64,000 nucleotides of DNA from Eledone cirrhosa (Eukaryota), in assembly GCA_964016885.1 (NCBI GenBank), contig OZ024745.1:58466001-58530000 (forward strand), read 5' to 3'. Within the stretch, counting starts at the first letter, position 1, and each line of letters starts with the position of its first letter. Shown one piece after another: positions 1-63,101 of this stretch. A program made the translations under genes and the position numbers. The notes under the pieces are model-generated. The model saw only the letters and a program-made list of their open reading frames with translations. It was not told the origin of the DNA and did not search any database.

Positions 1-3000
1 AAGGCGTATAGGTGTGTGGTACTGGTGAAGGTGTGTAGGTGTGTAGTACTGGTGAAGGTGTGTAGGTGTGTGGTACTGGTGAAGGTGTGTAGGTGTGTGG
101 TACTGGTGAAGGTGTGTAGGTGTGTGGTACTGGTGAAGGTGTGTAGGTGTGTGGTACTGGTGAAGGTGTGTAGGTGTGTGGTACTGGAGAAGGTGTGTAG
201 GTGTGTGGTACTGGAGAAGGTGTGTAGGTGTGTAGTACTGGTGAAGGTGTGTAGGTGTGTGGTACTGGAGAAGGTGTGTAGGTGTGTGGTACTGGAGAAG
301 GTGTGTAGGTGTGTGGTACTGGTGAAGGTGTGTAGGTGTGTGGTACTGGAGAAGGTGTGTAGGTGTGTGGTACTGGTGAAGATGTGTAGGTGTGTGGTAC
401 TGGTGAAGGTGTGTAGGTGTGTGGTACTGGGGAAGGTGTGTAGGTGTGTGGTACTGGTGAAGGTGTGTAGGTGTGTGGTACTGGTGAAGGTGTGTAGGTG
501 TGTGGTACTGGTGAAGGTGTGTAGGTGTGTGGTACTGGAGAAGGTGTGTAGGTGTGTGGTACTGGAGAAGGTGTGTAGGTGTGTAGTACTGGTGAAGGTG
601 TGTAGGTGTGTGGTACTGGAGAAGGTGTGTAGGTGTGTGGTACTGGAGAAGGTGTGTAGGTGTGTGGTACTGGTGAAGGTGTGTAGGTGTGTGGTACTGG
701 AGAAGGTGTGTAGGTGTGTGGTACTGGTGAAGGTGTGTAGGTGTGTGGTACTGGTGAAGGTGTGTAGGTGTGTGGTACTGGTGAAGGTGTGTAGGTGTGT
801 GGTACTGGTGAAGGTGTGTAGGTGTGTGTTAATGGTTGAGATGTGGAGGTGTGTGGTACTGGTGAAGGTGTGTAGGTGTGGTACTGGTGAAGGTGTGTAA
901 GTGTGTGGTACTGGTGAAGGTGTGTAGATGTGTGGTACTGGTGAAGGTGTGTAGGTGTGTGGTACTGGTGAAGGTGTGTAGGTGTGTGGTATTGGTGAAG
1001 GTGTGTAGGTGTGTGGTATTGGTGTGTAGGTGTGTGGTACTGGTGAAGGTGTGTAGGTGTGTGGTACTGGAGAAGGTGTGTAGGTGTGTGGTACTGGTGA
1101 AGGTGTGTAGGTGTGTGGTACTGGAGAAGGTGTGTAGGTGTGTGGTACTGGTGAAGGTGTGTAGGTGTGTGGTACTGGTGTAGGTGTGGTGTGTGGTACT
1201 GGTGAAGGTGTGTAGGTGTGTGGTACTGGTGAAGGTGTGTAGGTATGTGGTACTGGTGTAGGTGTGGTGTGTGGTACTGGTGAAGGTGTGTAGGTGTGTG
1301 GTACTGGTGAAGGTGTGTAGGTGTGTGGTACTGGAGAAGGTGTGTAGGTGTGTGGTACTGGTGTAGGTGTGTAGGTGTGTGGTACTGGTGTAGGTGTGTG
1401 GTACTGGTGAAGGTGTGTAGATGTGTGGTACTGGTGAAGGTGTGTAGCTGTGTGGTACTGGTGAAGGTGTGTAGGTGTGTGGTACTGGTGAAGGTGTGTA
1501 GGTGTGTGGTACTGGTGAAGGTGTGTAGGTGTGTGGTACTGGTGAAGGTGTGTAGGTGTGTGGTACTGGTGAAGGTGTGTAGGTGTGTGGTACTGGTGAA
1601 GGTGTGTAGGTGTGTGGTACTGGTGTAGGTGTGGTGTGGTGTGTGGTACTGGTGAAGGCGTATAGGTGTGTGGTACTGGAGAAGGTGTGTAGGTGTGTGG
1701 TATTGGTGAAGGTGTGTAGGTGTGTGGTACTGGTGTAGGTGTGGTGTGGTGTGTGGTACTGGTGAAGGCGTATAGGTGTGTGGTACTGGAGAAGGTGTGT
1801 AGGTGTGTGGTACTGGAGAAGGTGTGTAGGTGTGTGGTACTGGTGAAGGTGTGTAGGTGTGTAGTACTGGAGAAGGTGTGTAGGTGTGTGGTATTGGTGA
1901 AGGTGTGTAGGTGTGTGGTACTGGTGAAGGCGTATAGGTGTGTGGTACTGGTGAAGGTGTGTAGGTGTGTAGTACTGGAGAAGGTGTGTAGATGTGTGGT
2001 ACTGGTGAAGGCGTATAGGTGTGTGGTACTGGTGAAGGTGTGTAGGTGTGTAGTACTGGTGAAGGTGTGTAGGTGTGTGGTACTGGTGAAGGCGTATAGG
2101 TGTGTGGTATTGGTGAAGGCGTGTAGGTGTGTGGTACTGGCGAAGGTGTGTAGCTGTGTGGTACTGGTGAAGGTGTGTAGGTGTGTGGTACTGGTGAAGG
2201 TGTGTAGGTGTGTGGTACTGGTGAAGGTGTGTAGGTGTGTGGTACTGGTGAAGGTGTGTAGGTGTGTGGTACTGGAGAAGGTGTGTAGGTGTGTGGTACT
2301 GGAGAAGGTGTGTAGGTGTGTAGTACTGGTGAAGGTGCGTAGGTGTGTGGTACTGGAGAAGGTGTGTAGGTGTGTGGTACTGGAGAAGGTGTGTAGGTGT
2401 GTGGTACTGGTGAAGGTGTGTAGGTGTGTGGTACTGGAGAAGGTGTGTAGGTGTGTGGTACTGGTGAAGGTGTGTAGGTGTGTGGTACTGGTGAAGGTGT
2501 GTAGGTGTGTGGTACTGGTGTAGGTGTGTGGTACTGGTGAAGGTGTGTAGGTGTGTGGTACTGGTGAAGGTGTGTAGGTGTGTGGTACTGGTGAAGGTGT
2601 GTAGGTGTGTGGTACTGGAGAAGGTGTGTAGGTGTGTGGTACTGGAGAAGGTGTGTAGGTGTGTAGTACTGGTGAAGGTGTGTAGGTGTGTGGTACTGGA
2701 TAAGGTGTGTAGGTGTGTGGTACTGGAGAAGGTGTGTAGGTGTGTGGTACTGGTGAAGGTGTGTAGGTGTGTGGTACTGGAGAAGGTGTGTAGGTGTGTG
2801 GTACTGGTGAAGGTGTGTAGGTGTGTGGTACTGGTGAAGGTGTGTAGGTGTGTGGTACTGGTGAAGGTGTGTAGGTGTGTGGTACTGGTGAAGGTGTGTA
2901 GGTGTGTGTTACTGGTTGAGATGTGGAGGTGTGTGGTACTGGTGAAGGTGTGTAGGTGTGGTACTGGTGAAGGTGTGTAAGTGTGTGGTACTGGTGAAGG

Positions 3001-5995
3001 TGTGTAGATGTGTGGTACTGGTGAAGGTGTGTAGGTGTGTGGTACTGGTGAAGGTGTGTAGGTGTGTGGTACTGGTGAAGGTGTGTAGGTGTGTGGTATT
3101 AGTGTGTAGGTGTGTGGTACTGGTGAAGGTGTGTAGGTGTGTGGTACTGGAGAAGGTGTGTAGGTGTGTGGTACTGGTGAAGGTGTGTAGGTGTGTGTTA
3201 CTGGTTGAGATGTGGAGGTGTGTGGTACTGGTGAAGGTGTGTAGGTGTGGTACTGGTGAAGGTGTGTAAGTGTGTGGTACTGGTGAAGGTGTGTAGATGT
3301 GTGGTACTGGTGAAGGTGTGTAGGTGTGTGGTACTGGTGAAGGTGTGTAGATGTGTGGTATTGGTGAAGGTGTGTAGGTGTGTGGTATTGGTGTGTAGGT
3401 GTGTGGTACTGGTGAAGGTGTGTAGGTGTGTGGTACTGGAGAAGGTGTGTAGGTGTGTGGTACTGGTGAAGGTGTGTAGGTGTGTGTTACTGGTTGAGAT
3501 GTGGAGGTGTGTGGTACTGGTGAAGGTGTGTAGGTGTGGTACTGGTGAAGGTGTGTAAGTGTGTGGTACTGGTGAAGGTGTGTAGGTGTGTGGTACTGGT
3601 GAAGGTGTGTAGGTGTGTGGTACTGGTGAAGGTGTGTAGGTGTGTGGTATTGGTGAAGGTGTGTAGGTGTGTGGTATTGGTGTGTAGGTGTGTGGTACTG
3701 GTGAAGGTGTGTAGGTGTGTGGTACTGGAGAAGGTGTGTAGGTGTGTGGTACTGGTGAAGGTGTGTAGGTGTGTGTTACTGGTTGAGATGTGGAGGTGTG
3801 TGGTACTGGTGAAGGTGTGTAGGTGTGGTACTGGTGAAGGTGTGTAAGTGTGTGGTACTGGTGAAGGTGTGTAGATGTGTGGTACTGGTGAAGGTGCGTA
3901 GGTGTGTGGTACTGGTGAAGGTGTGTAGATGTGTGGTATTGGTGAAGGTGTGTAGGTGTGTGGTATTGGTGTGTAGGTGTGTGGTACTGGTGAAGGTGTG
4001 TAGGTGTGTGGTACTGGAGAAGGTGTGTAGGTGTGTGGTACTGGTGAAGGTGTGTAGGTGTGTGTTACTGGTTGAGATGTGGAGGTGTGTGGTACTGGTG
4101 AAGGTGTGTAGGTGTGGTACTGGTGAAGGTGTGTAAGTGTGTGGTACTGGTGAAGGTGTGTAGATGTGTGGTACTGGTGAAGGTGTGTAGGTGTGTGGTA
4201 CTGGTGAAGGTGTGTAGGTGTGTGGTACTGGTGAAGGTGTGTAAGTGTGTGTTACTGGTTGAGATGTGTAGCTGTGTGGTACTGGTGAATGTGTGTAGAT
4301 GTGTGGTACTGGTGAAGGTGTGTAGATGTGTGGTATTGGTGAAGGTGTGTAGGTGTGTGGTATTGGTGTGTAGGTGTGTGGTACTGGTGAAGGTGTGTAG
4401 GTGTGTGGTACTGGTGAAGGTGTGTAGGTGTGTGGTACTGGTGAAGGTGTGTAGGTGTGTGGTATTGGTGAAGGAGTGTAGGTGTGTGGTACTGGCGAAG
4501 GTGTGTAGCTGTGTGGTACTGGTGAAGGTGTGTAGCTGTGTGGTACTGGTGAAGGTGTGTAGGTGTGTGGTATTGGTGAAGGAGTGTAGGTGTGTGGTAC
4601 TGGCGAAGGTGTGTAGCTGTGTGGTACTGGTGAAGGTGTGTATCTGTGTGGTACTGGTGAAGGTGTGTGGCACTGGTGAAGGTTTGTAGGTGTGGTAGTG
4701 GTGAAGGTGTGTAGGTGTGTGGTATTGGCGAAGGTGTGTAGCTGTGTGGTACTGGTGAAGGTGTGTAGCTGTGTGGTACTGGTGAAGGTGTGTAGGTGTG
4801 TGGTACTGGTGAAGGTGTGTAGGTGTGTGGTACTGGTGAAGGTGTGTAGGTGTGTGGTATTGGTGAAGGTGTGTAGGTGTGTGGTACTGGTGAAGGTGTG
4901 TAGGTGTGTGGTACTGGTGAAGGTGTGTAGGTGTGTGGTACTGGTGAAGGTGTGTAGGTGTGTGGTACTGGTGAAGGTGTGTATGTGTGGTACTGGTGAA
5001 GGTGTGTAGGTGTGTGGTACTGGTGAAGGTGTGTAGGTGTGTGGTACTGGTGAAGGTGTGTAGGTGTGTGGTACTGGTGAAGGTGTGTAGGTGTGTGGTA
5101 CTGGTGAAGGTGTGTAGCTGTGTGGTACTGGTGAAGGTGTGTAGCTGTGTGGTACTGGTGAAGGTGTGTAGGTGTGTGGTATTGGTGAAGGTGTGTAGGT
5201 GTGTGGTACTGGTGAAGGTGTGTAGGTGTGTGGTACTGGTGAAGGTGTGTAGGTGTGTTGTACTGGTGAAGGTGTGTATGTGTGGTACTGGTGAAGGTGT
5301 GTAGGTGTGTGCTACTGGTGAAGGTGTGTAGGTGTGTGGTACTGGTGAAGGTGTGAAGGTGTGGTACTGGAGAAGGTGTGTAGGTGTGTGGTACTGGCGA
5401 AGGTGTGTAGGTGTGTGGTACTGGTGAAGGTGTGTATGTGTGGTACTAGTGAAGGTGTGTAGGTGTGTGGTACTGGTGAAGGTGTGTAGGTGTGTGGTAC
5501 TGGTGAAGGTGTGTAGGTGTGTGGTACTGGTGAAGGTGTGTAGGTGTGTGGTACTGGTGAAGGTGTGTATGTGTGGTACTGGTGAAGGTGTGTAGGTGTG
5601 TGTTACTGGTTGAGATGTGGAGGTGTGTGGTATTGGTGAAGGTGTGTAGGTGTGTGGTACTGGTGAAGGTGTGTAGGTGTGTGGTACTGGTGAAGGTGTG
5701 TAGGTGTGGTACTGGTGAAGGTGTGTAGGTGTGTGGTACTGGTGAAGGTGTGTAGGTGTGTGGTATTGGTGAAGGTGTGTATCTGTGTGGTACTGGTGAA
5801 GGTGTGTATGTGTGGTACTGGTGAAGGTGTGTAGGTGTGTGTTACTGGTGAAGGTGTGTAGCTGTGTGGTACTGGTGAAGGTGTGTAGGTGTGTGGTATT
5901 GGTGAAGGTGTGTAGGTGTGTGGTACTGGTGAAGGTGTGTAGGTGTGTGGTACTGGTGAAGGTGTGTATGTGTGGTACTGGTGAATGTGTGTAGA
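1..5995. repeat. 27-bp G/T-rich minisatellite (GTACTGGTGAAGGTGTGTAGGTGTGTG)n with a local 289-bp higher-order period; lies in the PIG-S intron downstream of exon 13
   Basis: Unit read directly. The variant unit TTACTGGTTGAGATGTGGAG recurs at 289-bp spacing (ORF starts 2958, 3247, 3536, 3825, 4114). The array runs off the window start. Confidence 0.97.
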
Positions 5996-6004
5996 TGTGT
6001 GCAA

Positions 6005-11575: not shown

Positions 11576-12070
11576 CAAGTAAGTATGTTTTGAAACAGTG
11601 AGCAAGTTTGAAATTAGAAATAGAAGCTTTCACCGTATTTTTTTACTAAAGAAATTTTAGCCTGATAGTGGGGTTTATAACCCTCAGAGATAACCAAAGA
11701 TGTGGGTTCGACTCCCATGTACGTCAATACTCATCTTTTTCCATTTCTCTGAGGGTTATAAACCCCACTATCAGGCTAAAATTTCTTTAGTAAAAAAATA
11801 CGGTGAAAGCTTCTATTTCTAATTTCAAACTTGCTCCCTGTTTCAAAACATACTTACTTGTCATCATACTTACTAATAATATAGCTTCTAATTTGAATGG
11901 AAGGAGATGGGTGATGTGTTGGTAACACAGTGGTCTGGATAACCAAAGATGTGGGTTCGACTCCCATGTACGTCAATACTCATCTTTTTCCCTTTCTCTG
12001 AGGATTATAAACCCCACTATCAGGCTAAAATTTCTTTAGTCAAAAAATACGGTGAAAGCTTCTATTTCTA

Positions 12071-12076
<6 letters not shown>
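11576..12076 (+). mobile_element. Non-coding 249-bp-period element with a tRNA-like core, a 115-bp inverted arm and a partial tandem copy, embedded in (TA)n; Penelope-like architecture
   Basis: 11576-11690 is the reverse complement of 11746-11860 (1 mismatch). 11689-11827 is repeated directly at 11938-12076. B-box GGTTCGACTCC in a T-arm-like hairpin is followed by TTTTT. Confidence 0.7.
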
Positions 12077-13246: not shown

Positions 13247-13468
13247 CCAATGGTCCCTCAACAACCCTCTTCTGAGTTTTCCATCTTCATAATGATGCAA
13301 TATTGATTTGGACATGAGGCCATAAATTTCTGGAGAAAAGTCATCATCATCATCAACATTTATGATGATGATGACATTATTCTAGAAATTTGTGACCACA
13401 TGCTCAAATCAATATTACTTTATTATCAAGATGGAAAATTCTGAAGAGGGTTGTTGATCAGTCATTGG
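13247..13468. repeat. Imperfect long palindrome (arms about 105 bp) centred on (TCA)n/(TGA)n
   Basis: TCAACAACCCTCTTC/GAAGAGGGTTGTTGA, AATATTGATTTG/CAAATCAATATT and GTCATCATCATCA/TGATGATGATGAC pair symmetrically. Confidence 0.85.
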
Positions 13469-23769: not shown

Positions 23770-23887
23770 CTAAAGTAAGAAAAAAGTATATATTTTTAAA
23801 AGATATCACTTAAAAGGCAATATCATGAAAGCATGGAAAAACGGATGTAAAAGATGATGATGATGATGATATATATATATATACACA

Positions 23888-23965
23888 CACAGTGTCCCCC
23901 GAAAATGTATACACATATTTATTAGAATGCTGTTGAAGTGTGTATACATTTTGGGGGAAACCCAG
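23888..23965. mobile_element. Tiny TA-target MITE, Tc1/mariner-type; sister of 38298-38375
   Basis: GTGTCCCCCGAAAATGTATACAC ... GTGTATACATTTTGGGGGAAAC inverted termini next to TA repeats. Confidence 0.65.
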
Positions 23966-23997
<32 letters not shown>

Positions 23998-24459
23998 GTG
24001 ATTCAGTAGATTTGTGGTTTACTGAGGAATATACCAATATCAGCAATCTATTCTATAGCAGAGTGTATATATCAAGAAGAACAAATCAAGGTTTCAGATA
24101 GAGGTTTTTATCGATTAGGCTCAGTTATGAACATTCATAACTGAGCCTGATCAATAAAGACCCTAATACGAAACCTCAATTTGTTCTTTTTAATATATGT
24201 GTCAGATCATCAGTTTTCATTTGGAGTTACTGCCCTCCTAGAGATATCGTATTACATCAATCTTGTATGCTCTCATTTTGGCCTGGTTTCTACAGCTGGA
24301 TCCCCTTCTAAACACCAACCATTTACAGAGTGTACAGGCTGCATCTTTTGTGGCACCAGCACTGAACAGGTTTTCATATCCTCAAAAAAAATAAAGAAAG
24401 AATCCTCTATCCCCTAGATTGTATCTATCCAATCATTAAATACTTTACTAAGTACTAAG

Positions 24460-25710: not shown

Positions 25711-26154
25711 CACTTGCCCTCCCCACCAGACAAAGGTCTGATGGTGAAGTGGGTTTAGTTACTCACCACAAGACTATAAAGCAGGTTGTACTGAGTTACA
25801 TGGTACCAGTAGCAGGCAGGAGCCTGACTCTACATATCCATATCACGATTGATATTCAGTCATACTGTCCTTTTAGATGGGTGACAGGTTGACCCTGCAT
25901 GTTCTAATTTTTGGCATGTTTCCAGTGGCTGATTAAACTATGGGTGGGTCGTGGATGGTATGGTAGGTAGGGTTGGTGTGACCAAGGTAGGTTAAAAGGA
26001 CCAGAGTAGGTTGGTGTTGGGTGGAGGGGGGAGGGGGGGGGGGGGGGTATATAGCAGGCTAATGATAGGCTGGTGGTGAGGTTTAGCTGTAGTGATTGTT
26101 GTAGGTTGTGGTGGGCATTGTGGCAGGTTATTGTGGTGGGTTGTAATGATTATG

Positions 26155-29100
26155 GTAGGTTGGTGATGGCTGGGGTAGCAGTGTGATGGTAGGTTGGTGA
26201 TGGCTGGGGTAGCAGTGTGATGGCAAGGGTAGCAGTGTGATGGTAGGTTGGTGATGGCAGGGGTAGCAGTGTGATGGTAGGTTGATGATGGCTGGGGTAG
26301 CAGTGTGATGGTAGGTTGATGATGGCAGGGGTAGCAGTGTGATGGTAGGTTGGTGATGGCTGAGGTAGCAGTGTGATGGTAGGTTGGTGATGGCAGGGGT
26401 AGTAGTGTGATGGTAGGTTGGTGATGGCTGAGGTAGCAGTGTGATGGTAGGTTGGTGATGGCAGGGGTAGTAGTGTGATGGTAGGTTGGTGATGGCAGGG
26501 GTAGCAGTGTGATGGTAGGTTGGTGATGGCTGAGGTAGCAGTGTGATGGTAGGTTGGTGATGGCAGGGGTAGTAGTGTGATGGTAGGTTGGTGATGGCAG
26601 GGGTAGTAGTGTGATGGTAGGTTGGTGATGGCAGGGGTAGCAGTGTGATGGTAGGTTGGTGATGGCTGAGGTAGCAGTGTGATGGTAGGTTGGTGATGGC
26701 AGGGGTAGTAGTGTGATGGCAGGGGTAGCAGTGTGATGGTAGGTTGATGATGGCTGGGGTAGCAGTGTGATGGTAGGATGGTGATGGCTGGGGTAGCAGT
26801 GTGATGGTAGGTTGGTGATGGCTGAGGTAGCAGTGTGATGGTAGGTTGGTGATGGCTGGGGTAGCAGTGTGATGGTAGGTTGGTGATGGCTGAGGTAGCA
26901 GTGTGATGGTAGGTTGGTGATGGCAGGGGTAGCAGTGTGATGGTAGGTTGGTGATGGCTGAGGTAGCAGTGTGATGGTAGGTTGGTGATGGCAGGGGTAG
27001 TAGTGTGATGGCAGGGGTAGCAGTGTGATGGTAGGTTGATGATGGCTGGGGTAGCAGTGTGATGGTAGGATGGTGATGGCAGGGGTAGCAGTGTGATGGT
27101 AGGTTGGTGATGGCAGGGGTAGCAGTGTGATGGCAGGGGTAGCAGTGTGATGGTAGGTTGATGATGGCTGGGGTAGCAGTGTGATGGTAGGATGGTGATG
27201 GCAGGGGTAGCAGTGTGATGGTAGGTTGGTGATGGCAGGGGTAGCAGTGTGATGGTAGGTTGATGATGGCTGGGGTAGCAGTGTGATGGTAGGATGGTGA
27301 TGGCAGGGGTAGCAGTGTGATGGTAGGATGGTGATGGCAGGGGTAGCAGTGTGATGGTAGGTTGGTGATGGCAGGGGTAGCAGTGTGATGGCAGGGGTAG
27401 CAGTGTGATGGTAGGTTGATGATGGCTGGGGTAGCAGTGTGATGGTAGGATGGTGATGGCAGGGGTAGCAGTGTGATGGTAGGTTGGTGATGGCAGGGGT
27501 AGCAGTGTGATGGCAAGGGTAGCAGTGTGATGGTAGGTTGGTGATGGCAGGGGTAGCAGTGTGATGGTAGGTTGATGATGGCTGGGGTAGCAGTGTGATG
27601 GTAGGTTGATGATGGCAGGGGTAGCAGTGTGATGGTAGGTTGGTGATGGCTGAGGTAGCAGTGTGATGGTAGGTTGGTGATGGCAGGGGTAGTAGTGTGA
27701 TGGTAGGTTGGTGATGGCTGAGGTAGCAGTGTGATGGTAGGTTGGTGATGGCAGGGGTAGTAGTGTGATGGTAGGTTGGTGATGGCAGGGGTAGCAGTGT
27801 GATGGTAGGTTGGTGATGGCTGAGGTAGCAGTGTGATGGTAGGTTGGTGATGGCAGGGGTAGTAGTGTGATGGTAGGTTGGTGATGGCAGGGGTAGTAGT
27901 GTGATGGTAGGTTGGTGATGGCAGGGGTAGCAGTGTGATGGTAGGTTGGTGATGGCTGAGGTAGCAGTGTGATGGTAGGTTGGTGATGGCAGGGGTAGTA
28001 GTGTGATGGCAGGGGTAGCAGTGTGATGGTAGGTTGATGATGGCTGGGGTAGCAGTGTGATGGTAGGATGGTGATGGCTGGGGTAGCAGTGTGATGGTAG
28101 GTTGGTGATGGCTGAGGTAGCAGTGTGATGGTAGGTTGGTGATGGCTGGGGTAGCAGTGTGATGGTAGGTTGGTGATGGCTGAGGTAGCAGTGTGATGGT
28201 AGGTTGGTGATGGCAGGGGTAGCAGTGTGATGGTAGGTTGGTGATGGCTGAGGTAGCAGTGTGATGGTAGGTTGGTGATGGCAGGGGTAGTAGTGTGATG
28301 GCAGGGGTAGCAGTGTGATGGTAGGTTGATGATGGCTGGGGTAGCAGTGTGATGGTAGGATGGTGATGGCAGGGGTAGCAGTGTGATGGTAGGTTGGTGA
28401 TGGCAGGGGTAGCAGTGTGATGGCAGGGGTAGCAGTGTGATGGTAGGTTGATGATGGCTGGGGTAGCAGTGTGATGGTAGGATGGTGATGGCAGGGGTAG
28501 CAGTGTGATGGTAGGTTGGTGATGGCAGGGGTAGCAGTGTGATGGTAGGTTGATGATGGCTGGGGTAGCAGTGTGATGGTAGGATGGTGATGGCAGGGGT
28601 AGCAGTGTGATGGTAGGATGGTGATGGCAGGGGTAGCAGTGTGATGGTAGGTTGGTGATGGCAGGGGTAGCAGTGTGATGGCAGGGGTAGCAGTGTGATG
28701 GTAGGTTGATGATGGCTGGGGTAGCAGTGTGATGGTAGGATGGTGATGGCAGGGGTAGCAGTGTGATGGTAGGTTGGTGATGGCAGGGGTAGCAGTGTGA
28801 TGGCAGGGGTAGCAGTGTGATGGTAGGTTGATGATGGCTGGGGTAGCAGTGTGATGGTAGGATGGTGATGGCAGGGGTAGCAGTGTGATGGTAGGTTGGT
28901 GATGGCAGGGGTAGCAGTGTGATGGTAGGTTGGTGATGGCAGGGGTAGCAGTGTGATGGTAGGTTGATGATGGCTGGGGTAGCAGTGTGATGGTAGGTTG
29001 GTGATGGCAGGGGTAGCAGTGTGATGGTAGGTTGGTGATGGCTGGGGTAGCAGTGTGATGGTAGGTTGGTGATGGCAGGGGTAGCAGTGTGATGGTAGGT

Positions 29101-29441
29101 TGGTGATGGCAGGGGTAGCAGTGTGATGGTAGGTTGGTGATGGCTGGGGTAGCAGTGTGATGGTAGGTTGGTGATGGCAGGGGTAGCAGTGTGATGGTAG
29201 GTTGGTGATGGCAGGGGTAGCAGTGTGATGGTAGGTTGATGATGGCTGGGGTAGCAGTGTGATGGTAGGTTGGTGATGGCAGGGGTAGCAGTGTGATGGT
29301 AGGTTGGTGATGGCAGGGGTAGCAGTGTGATGGTAGGTTGGTGATGGCAGGGGTAGCAGTGTGATGGTAGGTTGATGATGGCAGGGGTAGCAGTGTGATG
29401 GTAGGTTGGTGATGGCTGAGGTAGCAGTGTGATGGTAGGTT
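26155..29441. repeat. 34-bp minisatellite (GGTAGGTTGGTGATGGCAGGGGTAGCAGTGTGAT)n with 20-bp deletion units and a 1290-bp block duplication
   Basis: Unit read directly. The rare variant GGCAAGGGTAG occurs at 26222 and 27512, with the same variant order following each. Confidence 0.96.
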
Positions 29442-29941
29442 ATTGGTGAACAAGAAGTCTCATGGAGAAAGAGAATAAGGTGAATGTGATCAGATCTGAT
29501 ATCAAAGTAATGGATGATGGTAAGAGAGTTAGAGAGAGTGTTAGTGTTAATGAGAGTGATAAAAATAATAATTCCTAGTATAGGCACAAGGCTAGTAATT
29601 TGGGGGGAGAGGAAAGTCGATTAAATCGACCTCAGTATATTACTGGTGCTTTATATTTTATTGACCCCGTAAGGATGAAAGGCAAAGCTAACCTAAAACT
29701 AACCTCAACGAGATTTGAACTCAGAATGTAAAAATAATAATATAAGGGTGAAGTGGGTGAATATGGGCCAATCAAATGCCCTACCTCCTCTGTTACTCAG
29801 TCAGGATGGCACAGTGAGTACCATAATGGAGTCATAAAAGAGATGGTTAAGAATAAATCCCTTTTCCATCACCTTTAACTTTAGCAGCCATGTTGCTGTA
29901 CTTGTAATATTACCAGTCATCATGATCTTGAGTAAACTCTT

Positions 29942-41563: not shown

Positions 41564-42387
41564 CTACAGAAAGGAATTATAAAGTGTTTATAGAATAAAG
41601 CATGTTTAGAGTTAATCATGCATGCATTTTTATGGTTGTGTAAATGTTTGTTTGGATGCACATAAGTTGCTGTTGTGGTGGTTTAGAACCAGGTCAACCT
41701 TAAAATTTAAATATTTAAATATTTAAATTTAAAAATTTTATTAATTTTAAAAATTTAAATATTTAAATGAGTAACTCTAATGTAAGATGACATAGCTTAA
41801 GAAATGTCATACCTTGAACAATAACAATATATGTATATATAAACATATATGTATATATACATATATTATTATATATTATGGAATACTGTTGGCTTCTTGC
41901 TACAATACTTTCTATACCTTTCATTTATATATGTATATATACATATATATATGTGTGGGTGTGTGACCAGTTTAAAAGTGCCTCCTCCAATATACAGTGG
42001 TGGCCATAATTGAACCCTGAAACCAATGGTCACTCATACATGTTAAGTGTATGAAACTTTATTTATACTATATATATATAATTAGTATAAACATTTAACA
42101 TATATTTTCCTTGCTATCAGTATTACTGACCTGGCAAGACAGGGGCCCACTTCTTGCTTACATACATTTCTGCACTCTACGGAATGGACTGGGTGCATTT
42201 CATTTTGATATCACCACTCAATGTCTTTAACACAGCTAGAAGGTCCTCATGACCCTTTGTTTGGCCAGTTTTCTATGGATGGATGCTCTTCCAACTCTAT
42301 GTGGAGGGAATAGGAACTATGCCATGGGTAAGGGGCTGTGAGGAGGGAAGACATATATATATATATATATTTTAAATTAAATTAAAT

Positions 42388-44166
42388 TAATCGACCAGGT
42401 CATGAAGGTCACGGAAAAAGTAATAGCGCAACTAATCAGAGAGAGAATTGATCTAGATGAAATGCAGTTCGGGTTTGTGTCAGGCAAAAGCACCACAGAC
42501 GCTCTTTTCATAGTACGACAACTACAGGAGAAGTACCTAGCTAAAGGTAAACCCCTCTACTTAGCTTTTGTCGACCTGGAGAAAGCCTTCGACAGAGTCC
42601 CCCGCTCCATTATCTGGTGGGCTCTTAGAAAACTAGGCGTTGACGAATGGCTTGTGAGGGCTATACAAGCCATGTATAAAGAAACAGTCAGCAAGGTTAG
42701 AATTAACAACGAATATAGTGAAGAGTTTAGCGTAAAAGTTGGCGTCCATCAGGGCTCTGTTCTCAGCCCCCTACTATTTATTATTGCCCTTCAGGCTATA
42801 ACAGAGGAGTTCAAGACAGGCTGCCCATGGGAACTCCTATACGCAGACGACCTGACACTCATAGCGGAATCAATGGCCGAGCTAGAGAAGAAATTCCAAA
42901 CATGGAAGCACGGCCTAGAGTCAAAAGGACTTAAAATTAACCTGGCTAAGACCAAAGTTCTAGTTTGTAGGAAAGAAAACAAGGCGGCGGTCCCTTCTGG
43001 GAAATGGTCGTGCTCGGTATGTAGGAAAGGCGTAGGTAGAAACTCCATCTTATGTCCTAAATGCAAAGTATGGGTGCATAAAAGATGTAGTGGGATCACA
43101 GGTAAGCTAACTAAGAACATAGACTTTACATGTGGCCGATGTTCTGGTGCAATAAGTAGCAGCAAGTGCCCACAAAATACTAGCTCTTTCAATTGCGCAG
43201 AGGGTTCTATAGAAATAGTGGACAGCTTCCGTTACCTGGGCGATAAAATCAGCAGTGGGGGAGGGTGCTCTGAAAGTACTGTAGCTAGAGTCAGAACTGG
43301 TTGGAAAAAGTTCAGAGAGCTTATACCACTATTAGCTGCTAAAGGGTTCTCCCTAAAAATGAAAGGCAGGTTGTACAATGCCTGCATACGAACAGCAATG
43401 TTGCATGGTAGTGAGACCTGGGCATTGTGTGCAGAGGATATACGCAGACTAGAGAGGAACGAAGCTTGCATGCTCCGCTGGATGTGTAACAGTAATATAC
43501 GTGAACGGCAAAGCATAAACGAACTAAGGAAAAAATTAGAGATAAGAGGGATCAGATGTTGTTTACTCGAGAGAAGGCTGCGTTGGTATGGACACGTGAT
43601 GCGCATGAAAGTCGATAGCTGTATTACAAAGTGCAGGGCAATAAAGATAGACGGTAGCCACGGAATAGGCAGACCTAGAAAAACATGGGATGAGCTGATA
43701 AACTACAACCTCATACACTTACACCTCTCCAAGACAATGTCACTGGACCGTGACCTTTGGCGGTACTCAGTAACAGAGAAGACCCGCCTTGCCAGTAGGC
43801 ATCTCTAACAAACTACACCCCATCCCGCCACCACCCCCACCCCATCCACACCACCCCGTTCCATGTAAAGTTATGTTGGTGCCGCGCCATCCAGGCCGAA
43901 ACAAACGAGATCGTGTAGGTGTCACGACAAAAAAACACACAGTCCACGCTGTAATGTGGCCGTGTAGGCAACACGGTAAAAACCTCCCAGACCCACACTG
44001 TAAATGTGGTTGGTGTTAGGAAGGGCATCCAACTGTAGAAAACCTGCCAGACAGTCCTATGCGAGCAAGACAATCACTCTTGCCTCAAGTGGGACTACCC
44101 CCGTCCAAACCCATGCAAGCGTGGAACACGGACGTTAAACGTTGATGATGATGATGATGATGATGA
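42388..44166 (+). mobile_element. Young 5'-truncated RTE LINE, antisense to PIG-S, with (GAT)n tail
   Basis: Uninterrupted 468-aa ORF, a 3' UTR shared with other copies, and a tail ending at 44166. Confidence 0.95.
42402..43808 (+). CDS. RTE reverse transcriptase (N-truncated) with an embedded PHD-like Cys/His finger
   Basis: QFGF, FVDLEKAFDRV, GVHQGSVLSPLLF, LLYADDL, FRYLG and RRLRWYGHV motifs. C..C...C..C...H..C...C..C lies between INLAKTK and FRYLG. Confidence 0.93.
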   Translation: MKVTEKVIAQLIRERIDLDEMQFGFVSGKSTTDALFIVRQLQEKYLAKGKPLYLAFVDLEKAFDRVPRSIIWWALRKLGVDEWLVRAIQAMYKETVSKVRINNEYSEEFSVKVGVHQGSVLSPLLFIIALQAITEEFKTGCPWELLYADDLTLIAESMAELEKKFQTWKHGLESKGLKINLAKTKVLVCRKENKAAVPSGKWSCSVCRKGVGRNSILCPKCKVWVHKRCSGITGKLTKNIDFTCGRCSGAISSSKCPQNTSSFNCAEGSIEIVDSFRYLGDKISSGGGCSESTVARVRTGWKKFRELIPLLAAKGFSLKMKGRLYNACIRTAMLHGSETWALCAEDIRRLERNEACMLRWMCNSNIRERQSINELRKKLEIRGIRCCLLERRLRWYGHVMRMKVDSCITKCRAIKIDGSHGIGRPRKTWDELINYNLIHLHLSKTMSLDRDLWRYSVTEKTRLASRHL

Positions 44167-47260: not shown

Positions 47261-47391
47261 AAGTAGCAAAGATATCAGCAATTTCTTTTCTACTCTTGAC
47301 CCTGTAAATATGTATTGATTAAAATACGATTAGGATGTATTTTTATTTCTTCGATATATTGATTTTATATTTGTGGATAATTACATCAACA

Positions 47392-49539
47392 AAATCTCCG
47401 TACAAGGCGATTTCATCCTTCCCCGCTGGGTCAGGCGCGGAAATTGACGGCCTTCGTCCTCAACACCTGAAGGGTGGTATCTCCTTATCGGCCGGTGACG
47501 CCGGACTCGAGCTCTTGGAGAGTCTAACTCAGTTTGGGAATCAGTTCTCTTCAGTGAACGTTCTCCCGTTCATCCGCCCACTGTTCTTCGGTGCGAAGAT
47601 ATTTGGTCTCACCAAGCCCAACGGGGACCTGCGCCCCATTGCGGTTGGCTGCACACTTCGCCGCCTCACTGCAAAGGCGTGTTTGCTGTTGGTCTCCGAC
47701 TCACTGGAATTTTCCCCCATCCAGCTGGTGGGGGGGGGGGGTACCAAGTTGGGATGTGAGGCTGCTGTCCACGCTACCAGCGCATCTACCAACTTGCCCT
47801 CCTCGTCCCCAAGGTCATCCTCAAACTTGACCTCAAGAATGCATTTAACTCCGTCAGCCGCGACATCGTTCTCGGCTCAGTAAGAGAGAGGGTCCCACAA
47901 CTCTACCACTTTGCTTGGCAGGCGCTATCGGGAGCCCTCCTACCCCTCTTTCGGTGACCAAATCATCACCTCTGCCTCAGGAGTCCAACAGGGTGACCCA
48001 CTCGGGCCCGCTCTGTTTGCACTGGGCATTGATGACGTCACCAAGATGGGGGTTGAGTTGGACCTCAATGTCTGGTACCTCGACGACGCCTGTTTGGGGG
48101 GAACTCCGGATATGGTTCTCGCCACTGCCAACAAGATGGTTGAGGGGCTCCAAATGTGAGCTCTGGATCCTCAACCACCCGGCTTCTCAACAGCAACAGC
48201 TAATCGACATGTTTGCAGAGTCCTTCCCTTCCATCGCGGTCCCTCCCCCGTCGGCTTGGTGCTCCTTAGGAGCCCCAATCACAGACATGGCCTTCGAGTC
48301 AATCTTCCAATCGAAGATGGTTGGCCTTGAGCAGCTATTGAGGAATATTGAAGTTATCGAACCTCATCAAGGTTTCTTCATACTCAAGAACTACATGTCT
48401 ATTCCTAAGCTTATGTATCTGCTCAGGGTCAGCCCCTCTCATAGATTTCCGTCCTGCCTCCAACGCTTCGACGACCTAATCTTCGAGAGACTCGAGTGCC
48501 TGGTCAATTTTAGACTCTCTCCAGAGTCCCTGCGTTGCCCAAGCAATTTTGGGGTCTTGGTTTTCATAAGTGTTCGTCCCTCTCTCTCCCCTGCTTCCTT
48601 TCCTCCACCCACGCTTGCTCCACACTGGTGAGCAGCATCGTCTCCTCTCCAACATGGACTAGTTCCAACAGGAAGTTGGGTAAAGCTCTCCAGCAATGGA
48701 GTGAGTTGGGCTTGTCTCTTCCTGAGAAGGTGGAGGACAGTCGAAGTCAGAGAACTTGGGACAGCATAAGTTCGAAGGTCACCTTCGACTCCCTCTTCGT
48801 CCAGTCAGATCAGTTTGCAAGGTGCCGCTTACTATCTGCCAGCGCCAAATACTCAGGCGACTGGGTTGATGCCCTACCCGTGGCCAGCGTTGGTGGCTTA
48901 CTCAGCCTGGACGAACTTCGTGTCTCCATCGCCCTCAGAGTGGGAGCTAACATCTGCATGGGTTTGAGGTGCCGATGCGGCAAACTCCTCGACTCCACAG
49001 GCCTCCACGGTCTTTCTTGCCGCCTGAATGCCAGCCGCTTCGCGCGTCACACAGAGCTAAACCTCATTCTGAAGAGAGCTTTGGCCCGGGCGAATATTCC
49101 CTCAGTCTTGGAACCATCTGGGTTGTCCAGAAGTGACGGCAAAAGAGCTGACGGCCTTACCCTGTGCCCCTGGTCGAGAGGCAGGTGCCTTGTCTGGGAC
49201 GTCACTGTTAGTGACTCTTTTGCTCTTTCCCACATCCTGGATGCAGCGGTTAGGACGAGGGCCACAGCTTCCGCAGCCGAGCGGAATAAGACCCTCAAAT
49301 ACTCTGATCTGTCGGCTAGCTACATTTTTCAGCCTGTGGCTTTCGAGACATTTGGGGGAGTCTGGCCGCCGACTGCGTGATTCCTCTCTTCACTGGAGGC
49401 TCGCCTAATAGAGGTAATTGGTGAATCTCGCGAGGGCACTTGGCTATTTCAGCGCACCACCGAGGCAACGCTGCGAGTGTGCTGGCTTGCTTCAAAAATC
49501 ATTAGAGAGGTTGCCCAGTACCCCTCGCGACGTTGCTGT
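47392..49539 (+). mobile_element. CRE-clade non-LTR retrotransposon (RT plus restriction-like endonuclease), 5'-truncated and frameshifted; its 3' UTR probably resumes at 51620 to about 51885
   Basis: LRPIAVG.TLRRL, GCEAAVHA, KLDLKNAFNSVSR, GVQQGDPLGPALF, WYLDD; CRC...H..SC knuckle, R.ARH, RADG, WDVTV, AAE..K..KY, FETFG. Confidence 0.88.
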
Positions 49540-51615
49540 TGTAGCGGTTGTCTCCCTTGTTTTGATTGGGATCTAGACGGGAAGTGGAACCCTTTCTGCA
49601 ACTTCCGGTCAGAGCCCTATAAAACTAACAACTTTAAGCTTCCTTTCTCTCTTTGCCTTTTCGGCACCTGGTCAAGAGCCTCTCATTTGGCTCTGCCATT
49701 AATTTGGCCAACAGGCGCCTGGCCTTAGCCAGGCGCCCTCTGCCAGCCGCGTTTGCCTGGCAATCAAAACGGTAACTACTAACTTTGTTTCATTCTAACA
49801 TCTATCTTTGACATGTCAAGTATTCTATCTACCGTTAATTAAATATTATATACACAAACATTGTCTCGTTTTGTTACATTCATACAACCAGTAATTTCGC
49901 TAAATTGGTGACCCCGACGTGATACGAACACGCAGTCGTTCATCGCTATAAGTGGTCACCCCCAAAAAAAGAAAAAAATAGCACATCTGGTTTTGTGAGT
50001 AACATTACGAATACACAGCAAATTTAGCGACAAACTATGAAAATACTCAAGGACACGCACACACGCACATGTGGAATTCGCACAGACATACTTTTTCTCT
50101 CACGCATCAATTAACTGTCGCATTTCACCAATATATATATATATGTTTCTCGTTTCTTACAACGAACACTTTCAAAACAAAAAAAACATTTCACGATATA
50201 TATATATATGTTTCTCGTTTCTTACAACGAACTCTTTCAAAACACACAAAAAAAAAAAAAGAAATTTGATATTCTTTAAAAAACATTTCAACAGGAACAT
50301 TTATTTTCGATGAACCATTGCCTTTTGTTCTTCGTTTTCTTCATCGTTCAAGTTTTTTGTTTTTTTCCAAAGTTCACACCTATAATTATGCTGATTGAAG
50401 CCTTTCTTTTTCATCATTGTCACTTTCAAAATTGCACTATCATTTTCTCGCGCGTTAGAAATATTTTTTTTTCAACCTTGTATTGGCACGTGTAGGCAGC
50501 ATAAATTCTCGATTCACTGAGATGTCTCTACTCACAGACAGCCGCACGCCATTTATCACCAGGGATTCTTCAGCCTTAAGCTATATTCTTCTATTTGCCG
50601 GTTTATAAATTTACAATGTAAATTTACCGTTGATAACCGCGCATTTATTAAGAATGCTTATTTCTCTGGTCGCTGGCCTCTTGACCCTTCCAGGTCAACG
50701 CATTCTCAACATCGACCATCAACTTCGGCTGCTATTTCTAGCACTTTGCGCAACTCATTTTTTTCTAAAAAAAAATTTTTTTACTGTGAATTTAAACACC
50801 GAATACGCTCACTCAGCGAGACAACAGCAGCAGCAACAGCAACAGCAATACATCAATACAGCCAGAGAATTTATTTTTGCAGCACTCTTCCTGTGAGAAA
50901 ATCCATTCGGAGGTTGGAAATTTCACGATATACCACAGAACAGAAACCACCTGCATTCATTCTCTGGAACACACTTTCTTTCCTGCTGTCATGTGATTGC
51001 ACACCTGTGAACTATATTTTGAACTTTGAGCTCTTCTATTACTTTTACTTTATTACATTGTATCTTTGGGTGATGGATAGATGGATGTCCAGTCGTTCTC
51101 TGGCCAAGAGCGGTTGGCTACCTTGATATCTATCATTGATTTTTCCAAACATTCTTTTGTCGTAATTTTCATGCCTGTTACAACATTCTCGCCAACTTGC
51201 TACATATTTTCATTTCGATTTTTATACACTAAAATTCTGGCGGGAGGTTATGTAGCGGTTGTCTCCCTTGTTTTGATTGGGATCTAGACGGGAAGTGGAA
51301 CCCTTTCTGCAACTTCCGGTCAGAGCCCTATAAAACTAACAACTTTAAGCTTCCTTTCTCTCTTTGCCTTTTCGGCACCTGGTCAAGAGCCTCTCATTTG
51401 GCTCTGCCATTAATTTGGCCAACAGGCGCCTGGCCTTAGCCAGGCGCCCTCTGCCAGCCGCGTTTGCCTGGCAATCAAAACGGTAACTACTAACTTTGTT
51501 TCATTCTAACATCTATCTTTGACATGTCAAGTATTCTATCTACCGTTAATTAAATATTATATACACAAACATTGTCTCGTTTTGTTACATTCATACAACC
51601 AGTAATTTCGCTAAA
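49540..51615 (+). mobile_element. Non-autonomous LTR retrotransposon (TRIM-like, 2076 bp): 365-bp LTRs at 49540-49904 and 51251-51615, TSD CTGT
   Basis: LTRs appear identical by eye. CTGT at 49536-49539 and 51616-51619. PBS at 49906, purine-rich GGCGGGAGG before the 3' LTR, AT-rich interior with no gag or pol. Confidence 0.95.
49906..49923 (+). other. Primer-binding site complementary to the tRNA-Trp 3' end
   Basis: TGGTGACCCCGACGTGAT is the reverse complement of ATCACGTCGGGGTCACCA, the metazoan tRNA-Trp(CCA) 3' 18 nt as I recall it. Confidence 0.9.
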
Positions 51616-61620: not shown

Positions 61621-61919
61621 TTAATGTAAAGCAAATGGAAAGCTGTAGCATTGACAGAAATAGTTTTAAATTGGTTCCAGAACAAAGTTGCTTATTTGGT
61701 TTCCTAAGTACTACTATCACAACAGCCACACACACACACTAATTAATCTAATAATAATTATTATTATTATTGCACATAATATTTGTTGAAATAAACAACA
61801 GTTTAATACATTCTTAATTTTGATGCATTAATAATCGATTATTTTACAGATACATCACACACACACACAAACAGATACAGACACACATTTGTTTGAAGCT
61901 AATTGTTCACTGTCACTAC

Positions 61920-62710
61920 TGTAGCAAGAGTTGCCTCCCTTGTGACCATCACATCAACAATAAAGTAACCCTCTCTAGACAGGAAGTAGCTGGAGTTGCT
62001 TCCCGTTGGGGTGGCAGAGTCCTTTTTGTCACTTCCGCCCCAGGACCTATAAAGGGAATAAATTCCAGCTCTCTCTCTCTCATTTGCATTTCGGCTCCTG
62101 GCCATTCGCGTTCGTCTGGCAACCCTAAAATGGCCTCTTCCGAGCTAACTTCAAAACGGTAACAAATAACTTTACTTCATTCTTTCATCTACTACTCATT
62201 GACTTGTCAACTATACTATTCTACATAACTGCAAATTATTAATTAAACTTTATAAACACAAACCACGTCTCTTGTTATATTCATACAATCCAGTATTTTG
62301 TTATAAGTATCACGTCGGGGTCACCACTTATAACAAAATACTGGATTGTATGAATATAACAAGAGACGTGGTTTGTGTTTATAAAGTTTAATTAATAATT
62401 TGCAGTTATGTAGAATAGTATAGTTGACAAGTCAATGAGTAGTAGATGAAAGAATGAAGTAAAGTTATTTGTTACCGTTTTGAAGTTAGCTCGGAAGAGG
62501 CCATGTTAGGGTTGCCAGACGAACGCGCCTGGCCGAAATGCAAATGAGAGAGAGAGAGCTGGAATTTATTCCCTTTATAGGTCCTGGGGCGGAAGTGACA
62601 AAAAGGATTCTGCCACCCCAATGGGAAGCAACTCCAGCTACTTCCTGTCTAGAGAGCGTTACTCTATTGGTGATGTGATGGTCACAACAAGGGAGGCAAC
62701 TCTTGCTACA
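61920..62710. mobile_element. Inverted (tail-to-tail) LTR pair joined by an 18-nt tRNA-Trp PBS, TSD CTAC
   Basis: LTR-A 61920-62305 (+), AGT, ATCACGTCGGGGTCACCA at 62309-62326, CT, LTR-B 62329-62710 (-). CTAC at 61916-61919 and 62711-62714. The LTR is related to 49540-49904. Confidence 0.92.
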
Positions 62711-63101
62711 CTACTCAAAGATTTTCATCACCTGCCACATATCAACAAAAAGATGTCATCTCAATGTTTCAACATGAAAATAAACTGTAATACTGTAGTG
62801 AATCAACAGCTTGGAACAAACAAATAAACTCTACTATATGTATTGAGTACTTTTACTCCAGTTTGTTAACTCAAATGTGTGTGTAGGAGAGTATATATAT
62901 ATATATATATAATATATATATGTGTATAATTTGAAATGAAAACAAAACAAAGTATTATATAATAAATGAAAAAATATAAATCTGACTAGAATCATTCTAG
63001 TATGGAAGAATATTTAATATAAAAAGAAATGTAGTCATGGATAGAGGGAGGAATAACATTGCATTCTTTTGAGTAAATGTAAGAGACATTACTGACGGGG
63101 C

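Follow-up and report, generated by a model that had tools for sequence, protein, structure and literature searches.

An LTR-primer site-LTR palindrome inside one 4-bp direct repeat: an aberrant LTR insertion and probable one-off by-product of reverse transcription

Here, we show that the window (i.e., the whole 64,000-nucleotide stretch of Eledone cirrhosa DNA that was analysed) holds a 791-bp palindrome composed of two Gypsy-type LTRs around a single tRNA-Trp primer site, lying inside 4-bp direct repeats. The palindromic LTR-primer site-LTR structure is confirmed as real. We regard it as an aberrant LTR insertion, probably a one-off by-product of reverse transcription, and put at about 65% the probability that two reverse-transcription ends became joined and that, after fill-in, integrase inserted the product by its two U3 ends.

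Anatomy of the palindrome, support for the locus and the LTR family

The features of the palindrome are as follows.
61916-61919, plus strand: left copy of the direct repeat CTAC, a likely target-site duplication
61920-62305, plus strand: left LTR, 386 bp, TGT...ATA
62048-62053: TATAAA in the left LTR, a putative motif
62130-62504, no strand: perfect inner palindrome with 179-bp arms (62130-62308 with 62326-62504) and a 17-nt loop
62242-62247: ATTAAA in the left LTR, a putative motif
62306-62308, plus strand: AGT, read as the 2-nt spacer AG between LTR and primer site followed by T, presumably base 1 of the primer site
62309-62326, minus strand: 18-nt primer-binding site, complementary to the 3' end of tRNA-Trp
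62327-62328, minus strand: 2-nt spacer AG of the right arm (CT on the plus strand)
62329-62710, minus strand: right LTR, 382 bp, TGT...ATA on that strand
62574-62579: TATAAA in the right LTR
62711-62714, plus strand: right copy of the direct repeat CTAC

The primer-binding site ends at the m1A58 stop position, and 17 of its nucleotides make up the loop. The 8 differences between the arms, namely 6 substitutions, one 3-bp indel and one complex indel at 62095-62106, are confined to the outer 210 bp. A gap-free inner stretch of such length has a probability of 0.007 under uniform placement of the differences, and the concentration of 4 of the differences within 32 bp on the left arm was not significant (P = 0.09). 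At 62095-62106 and 62528-62537, each arm retains a different half of a small hairpin, the whole version of which is present in one contig of run X4, described below (joint 62103/62537); both arms seem to have lost sequence independently at this one spot.

A 4-bp direct repeat at the exact ends of the unit has a chance probability of 0.002-0.007. Neither an empty site nor a joint skipping the unit occurs among the joints listed for the contigs of runs X1-X4, so the 4-bp duplication rests on this probability. An ungapped comparison with a relative at 49540 would allow the left LTR to end one base later, at 62306; one contig of the family stops at 62305, which favours the boundary given above. 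The palindrome carries no polypurine tract, gag, pol or any coding sequence and is therefore predicted to be unable to retrotranspose again.

As independent data, we compared with the window the contigs of four of eight listed sequencing runs, of which X2 and X3 represent one sample, possibly the assembly's own source, X4 a different sample, and X1 another organism, with a small share. The left outer junction is matched by an X2 contig (61630-62000) with no other letters and is also covered by an X4 contig, that is, in a second sample. At the right outer junction, an X3 contig (62686-62880) likewise shows no other letters, only 25 of its letters lying inside the LTR. The palindrome centre is bridged by none of the contigs listed, X1 covers only simple repeats in the flanks, and X4 has no contig on the right flank; such gaps in coverage were given no weight. 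The window sequence contains no N.

Metagenome locus L050 contains a tRNA (Rfam tRNA, 41.1 bits) whose anticodon is CCA and whose 3' end is the primer-site 18-mer, and this 18-mer also stands 3' of the 5' LTR of the relative (49906-49923). This relative, at 49540-51615 on the plus strand and about 12 kb away, has two identical 365-bp LTRs in direct orientation that end in TGT...AAA, a CTGT/CTGT 4-bp duplication and a purine tract preceding the 3' LTR. Its interior has no Pfam or tblastx match and no coding remnants; it is a young non-coding LTR element of a related family. The arms of the palindrome are about 73% alike to its LTRs over the best local stretches, and this alignment shows that the arms are LTRs and gives their orientation. 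The original prediction, which had described two facing LTRs of about 385 bp, arms identical over the inner 170-180 bp, 18 nt of tRNA-Trp at the centre and a CTAC duplication, is borne out in each of these respects.

Beyond the primer site of the relative, complementarity to the L050 tRNA extends to 9 of 11 additional bases, the position opposite A58 being mismatched, and the leader pairs back with the primer site (z = -2.15). The relative sits at the 3' end of a decayed coding stretch without a Pfam match (47323-49535, plus strand), which we take to resemble a non-LTR retrotransposon with a restriction-like endonuclease.

The LTR family of the palindrome is multi-copy. At least 22 X2 contigs and at least 4 X4 contigs depart from the reference at 62710 and continue into different flanks, which marks the LTR start of the family. 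Summed contig depth, which is not a copy number, reaches thousands on the arms and about 9 on the flank. By contig comparison, the arms share letters that are in the minority in the family (e.g., at 62020, 62231, 62235 and 62238), indicating that both come from one subfamily.

The window holds other repeats. At 11576-11860 and 11913-12076 there is a near-perfect palindrome with 115-bp arms and one mismatch; the centre and right arm of the palindrome at 11576-11860 are a second copy of a segment that spans part of a tRNA-like sequence and the DNA 3' of it, no target duplication was seen there, and it looks like a host duplication-inversion. Three degenerate, MITE-like self-palindromes (78-83%) lie at 13258-13457, 23869-23984 and 24067-24198. 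A reverse transcriptase frame with a PHD-finger match inside occupies 42381-43808 on the plus strand, and strand-skewed tandem arrays occur at 1-6000 (a 27-bp unit) and 26000-29600. The short interspersed repeats of the window presumably resemble those of octopus.

Junction and origin of the palindrome

Read on the minus strand, the right arm consists of LTR, AG and exactly 18 primer-site bases; the left arm consists of LTR, AG and one primer-site base, and the two ends abut with no base lost or added. Reverse transcription is described to stop after the 18th tRNA base, before m1A58 (PMC13191261; PMC11241228), and in HIV-1 RNase H removes the tRNA primer and leaves one riboA (PMC11241228). By analogy with these ends, the right arm is plus-strand strong-stop DNA that would have halted before m1A58, and we infer that the left arm ends where removal of the tRNA left it, with the last adenosine kept. 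The leftover-adenosine rule is a finding from HIV-1, transferred here to a Gypsy-type family. In Ty3, polypurine-tract re-priming is reported to give exactly two plus-strand species, the first being LTR plus tRNA copy, a dead end that is abundant in particles, and the second an LTR ending at U5; the account of Ty3 places the tRNA cut only 'at or near' the junction (PMC5371799).

The primer site of the right arm, at exactly 18 bases, agrees with the m1A58 stop that had been predicted. The further claim that both arms are strong-stop cDNAs holds for the right arm, which bears the primer site, and not for the left, which ends one base into it. Fusion at a microhomology of 1-2 nt, as first proposed, is not required if the left arm ends where the tRNA was removed; because the two bases after the primer site of the relative are AC, the join is equally readable as 2 bases of microhomology.

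We propose that plus-strand strong-stop DNA ended after 18 nt of tRNA (the right arm), and that its 3' end would then have missed the far primer site and been joined to a U5 end with one tRNA adenosine (the left arm). Either a single molecule may have closed into a hairpin, the loop of which was then copied by the re-primed plus strand, or two strong-stop DNAs may have met at their tips and primed each other. Fill-in would give a duplex with a U3 end on each side, and integrase would insert both U3 ends with a 4-bp stagger, producing the 4-bp duplication. Pol theta, Lig3 and XRCC1 are reported to act on the primer-site overhang of fly and mouse elements (bioRxiv 2022.09.25.509424), and first-strand transfer can join R-U5 of one RNA to the U3 of another (PMC6894440). 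By folding, the 3' tip of the strong-stop end has no stable spontaneous foldback on its own.

This origin is favoured by the outer ends of the palindrome, each of which lies exactly at the first base of an LTR and is bordered by the 4-bp direct repeat, and by the inner ends, each of which corresponds to a known terminus of reverse transcription. A 4-bp duplication is likewise present at the relative and in CsRn1-like elements (PMC2582038). That the unit was inserted as a whole by its two U3 ends, as in the original prediction, is retained as the most likely origin. Against it, the one-molecule version must ascribe the 8 arm differences to later change, and the two-molecule version must account for 179 identical inner bases. 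The family contains both of the letters by which the arms differ at 62005/62622 and at 62019, a hint that the arms had two templates; the same outcome would be expected if one arm had later corrected the other near the loop. Plain foldback into flanking DNA was rejected: the flanks are direct, whereas foldback would leave inverted flanks.

The main rival is host repair, an unlikely but workable source of such a palindrome. A full-length element inserted on the minus strand would have been broken just past its primer site, folded back and had its 5' LTR copied, after which a template switch at the short inverted repeat of the LTR ends would have replaced the interior and the 3' LTR and kept the old duplication. 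A landing site would be available, as 6 of 8 bases agree between the LTR end and the reverse-complemented LTR start, and the AC after the primer site of the relative would provide 2 bases for foldback. The subfamily letters shared by the arms are compatible with such a history, as is the second short-spacer palindrome at 11576-11860, whose 115-bp arms have no evident duplication beside them. With four further palindromes of at least 100 nt, the window shows that such structures also arise here through host or DNA-transposon processes. However, the break would have to land exactly at the 18-nt stop, a second switch would be needed at a mismatched 8-mer exactly at the terminus, and the foldback stem is not stable. 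In addition, at least one non-CpG arm difference (62019) is also family-variable, which suggests two templates.

Rather improbable, in our view, is that the palindrome is one copy of a non-autonomous family moving as DNA (MITE- or Ginger-like), whatever its first origin. Its long terminal inverted repeats, TGTNR ends and 4-bp duplication are like those of Ginger elements (PMC2836005), and the contig comparison would not reveal exact copies of the junction. Yet no variant-spacer joints at the centre are found among the joints listed, the family letters at 62345-62346 have no mirror at 62288-62289, and the palindrome has no known transposase. The target CTAC moreover lies outside the preferences given for Ginger1 (CCGG/CCGT) and Ginger2 (RTATAY) (PMC2836005).

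Two independent insertions in opposite orientation at one site, followed by deletion between them, would account for arms that differ at 8 places, and inverted LTR tandems formed by double insertion occur in Drosophila (PMC5932611). Such tandems keep a target motif at the junction, which here consists of spacer and primer site. The deletion would need to coincide, base for base, with two reverse-transcription ends, and a single minor subfamily would need to be the source of both arms. We consider this origin very improbable. We think just as little of an assembly artefact, that is, a foldback read or a collapsed longer inverted structure: the listed short-read contigs leave the centre unbridged, but both outer junctions are matched without other letters, the left one is covered in a second sample, the arms differ from each other, and the palindrome stops at the LTR termini with unique flanks. 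In autointegration, the opposite strand would have been attacked by the processed U5 end at a point 3 bases beyond the primer site, and excision and insertion of the inverted LTR pair would have followed. This origin has a parallel in inversion circles (PMC7197481) and fits a left LTR that ends exactly at ATA before AGT, but it is barely tenable: the first bases of the family interior would have to be complementary to the spacer by coincidence, and the U3/polypurine boundary would have to be cut as well, a step for which we found no precedent.

Hairpin RNA, recurrence and significance

Transcription through the palindrome would give a hairpin of about 380 bp. The predicted fold of the palindrome RNA has an energy of -695.7 kcal/mol, and none of 20 shuffled sequences was as stable. 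Editing could be considered in X4, a run of 88 million letters with low-depth contigs, whose library type is unrecorded and, by size, probably RNA. T>C changes make up 25 of the 50 listed changed places in X4, compared with 7/31 in X2 (Fisher P = 0.019) and 4/24 in X3 (P = 0.010), and by hand subtraction from the contig tallies, at least 18 of 21 further changed places in X4 are T>C. One X4 contig (62096-62293, depth 2.76) has 26 other letters and no gap, and keeps the letters of the locus at 62200, 62204, 62231, 62235, 62238 and 62255, at which the other X4 contig differs; the X4 contig with the unique left flank has 11 other letters. Hyper-editing is described as typical of long near-perfect hairpins (PMC5625713). 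The letter changes in X4, a library of unrecorded type, suggest that the palindrome hairpin RNA may be A-to-I hyper-edited on a minus-strand transcript, and the T>C excess lends indirect support to the hairpin RNA of about 380 bp in the original prediction.

No inverted arm longer than 11 nt was found at the Trp primer site in any of 119 outside loci (9 viral and 110 metagenomic), compared with 201 nt in the window. The metagenome count comes from 13 of 64 parts, for an estimated total of about 610 loci, and some loci have fewer than 30 nt on one side; the test is a weak one, since most of the 119 loci are unverified as LTR elements, viral locus L121 being an avian retrovirus. The LTR of the palindrome is matched by none of the outside loci with a Trp primer site. 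Metagenome loci L054, L092, L098 and L113 are tandem arrays of the Trp primer site and a few LTR-end bases. In the literature, within a search that left most subscription papers outside, no title or abstract matched an LTR-primer site-LTR palindrome.

We are sceptical that Gypsy reverse transcription recurrently yields such palindromes, inserted by integrase, remobilisable as DNA and a source of edited double-stranded RNA against the parent family. If this were true, LTR retrotransposons could turn into terminal-inverted-repeat elements in one step, supplying a missing step in the proposed Gypsy-to-Ginger transition. How an LTR element could become a DNA transposon is called unclear in the description of Ginger elements, which proposes two chance insertions giving inverted LTRs (PMC2836005); an inverted LTR pair inside one target duplication implies that a single replication accident may suffice. 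As far as shown, the palindrome is one non-coding copy, which limits its importance. It illustrates cleanly how LTRs can become terminal inverted repeats in a single step, its junction preserves both inner reverse-transcription ends to the base, and its transcript, if made, would contain about 380 bp of double-stranded RNA directed at a large repeat family.

Comparison with known systems

CsRn1-like Gypsy elements are characterised by a Trp primer site, 4-bp duplications and LTR ends TGT...AAA or TGT...ATA (PMC2582038). The palindrome resembles members of this group (CsRn1, PwRn1 and AgCR) in its tRNA-Trp primer site, in a 4-bp duplication without preference (CTAC/CTAC here, CTGT/CTGT at the relative), in its ends (TGT...ATA in the arms, TGT...AAA in the relative) and in an LTR length near 380 bp (PMC2582038). 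In contrast to these elements as described, its LTRs are inverted and enclose no interior, polypurine tract, gag or pol (PMC2582038). A Gag with a CHCC motif and a Gypsy-order Pol are further marks of the group, of which neither the non-coding palindrome nor, by Pfam and tblastx, the interior of the relative gives a trace. Direct LTRs with a polypurine tract before the 3' LTR are found in the relative at 49540-51615 and not in the palindrome, which is not a CsRn1 family member in the strict sense.

Ginger1, Ginger2 and MITEs share with the palindrome terminal inverted repeats, TGTNR ends and a 4-bp duplication (PMC2836005), whereas the repeats here are whole 380-bp LTRs around a primer site and no transposase is known for the unit. 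The inverted tandems made by double insertion (PMC5932611) and the inversion circles (PMC7197481) also have LTRs in opposite orientation, but the palindrome has no target motif at the junction, no interior and one duplication around the whole unit. As a self-folding repeat and putative editing substrate, it is comparable to the palindromic hyper-edited Harbinger repeats of Xenopus, which are DNA transposons of about 200 bp, whereas the hairpin here would be LTR-derived and its editing is suggested by letter changes (PMC5625713).

The strong-stop DNAs of Ty3 correspond to the junction itself, in that the two arms of the palindrome match both species described in yeast (PMC5371799). The yeast species are extrachromosomal intermediates, which that account does not describe as joined or integrated (PMC5371799), whereas the palindrome combines both ends within one insertion; if the preferred reading of joined reverse-transcription ends holds, the junction would provide evidence, from a genome, that both Ty3-type plus-strand species also arise from an animal Gypsy element.
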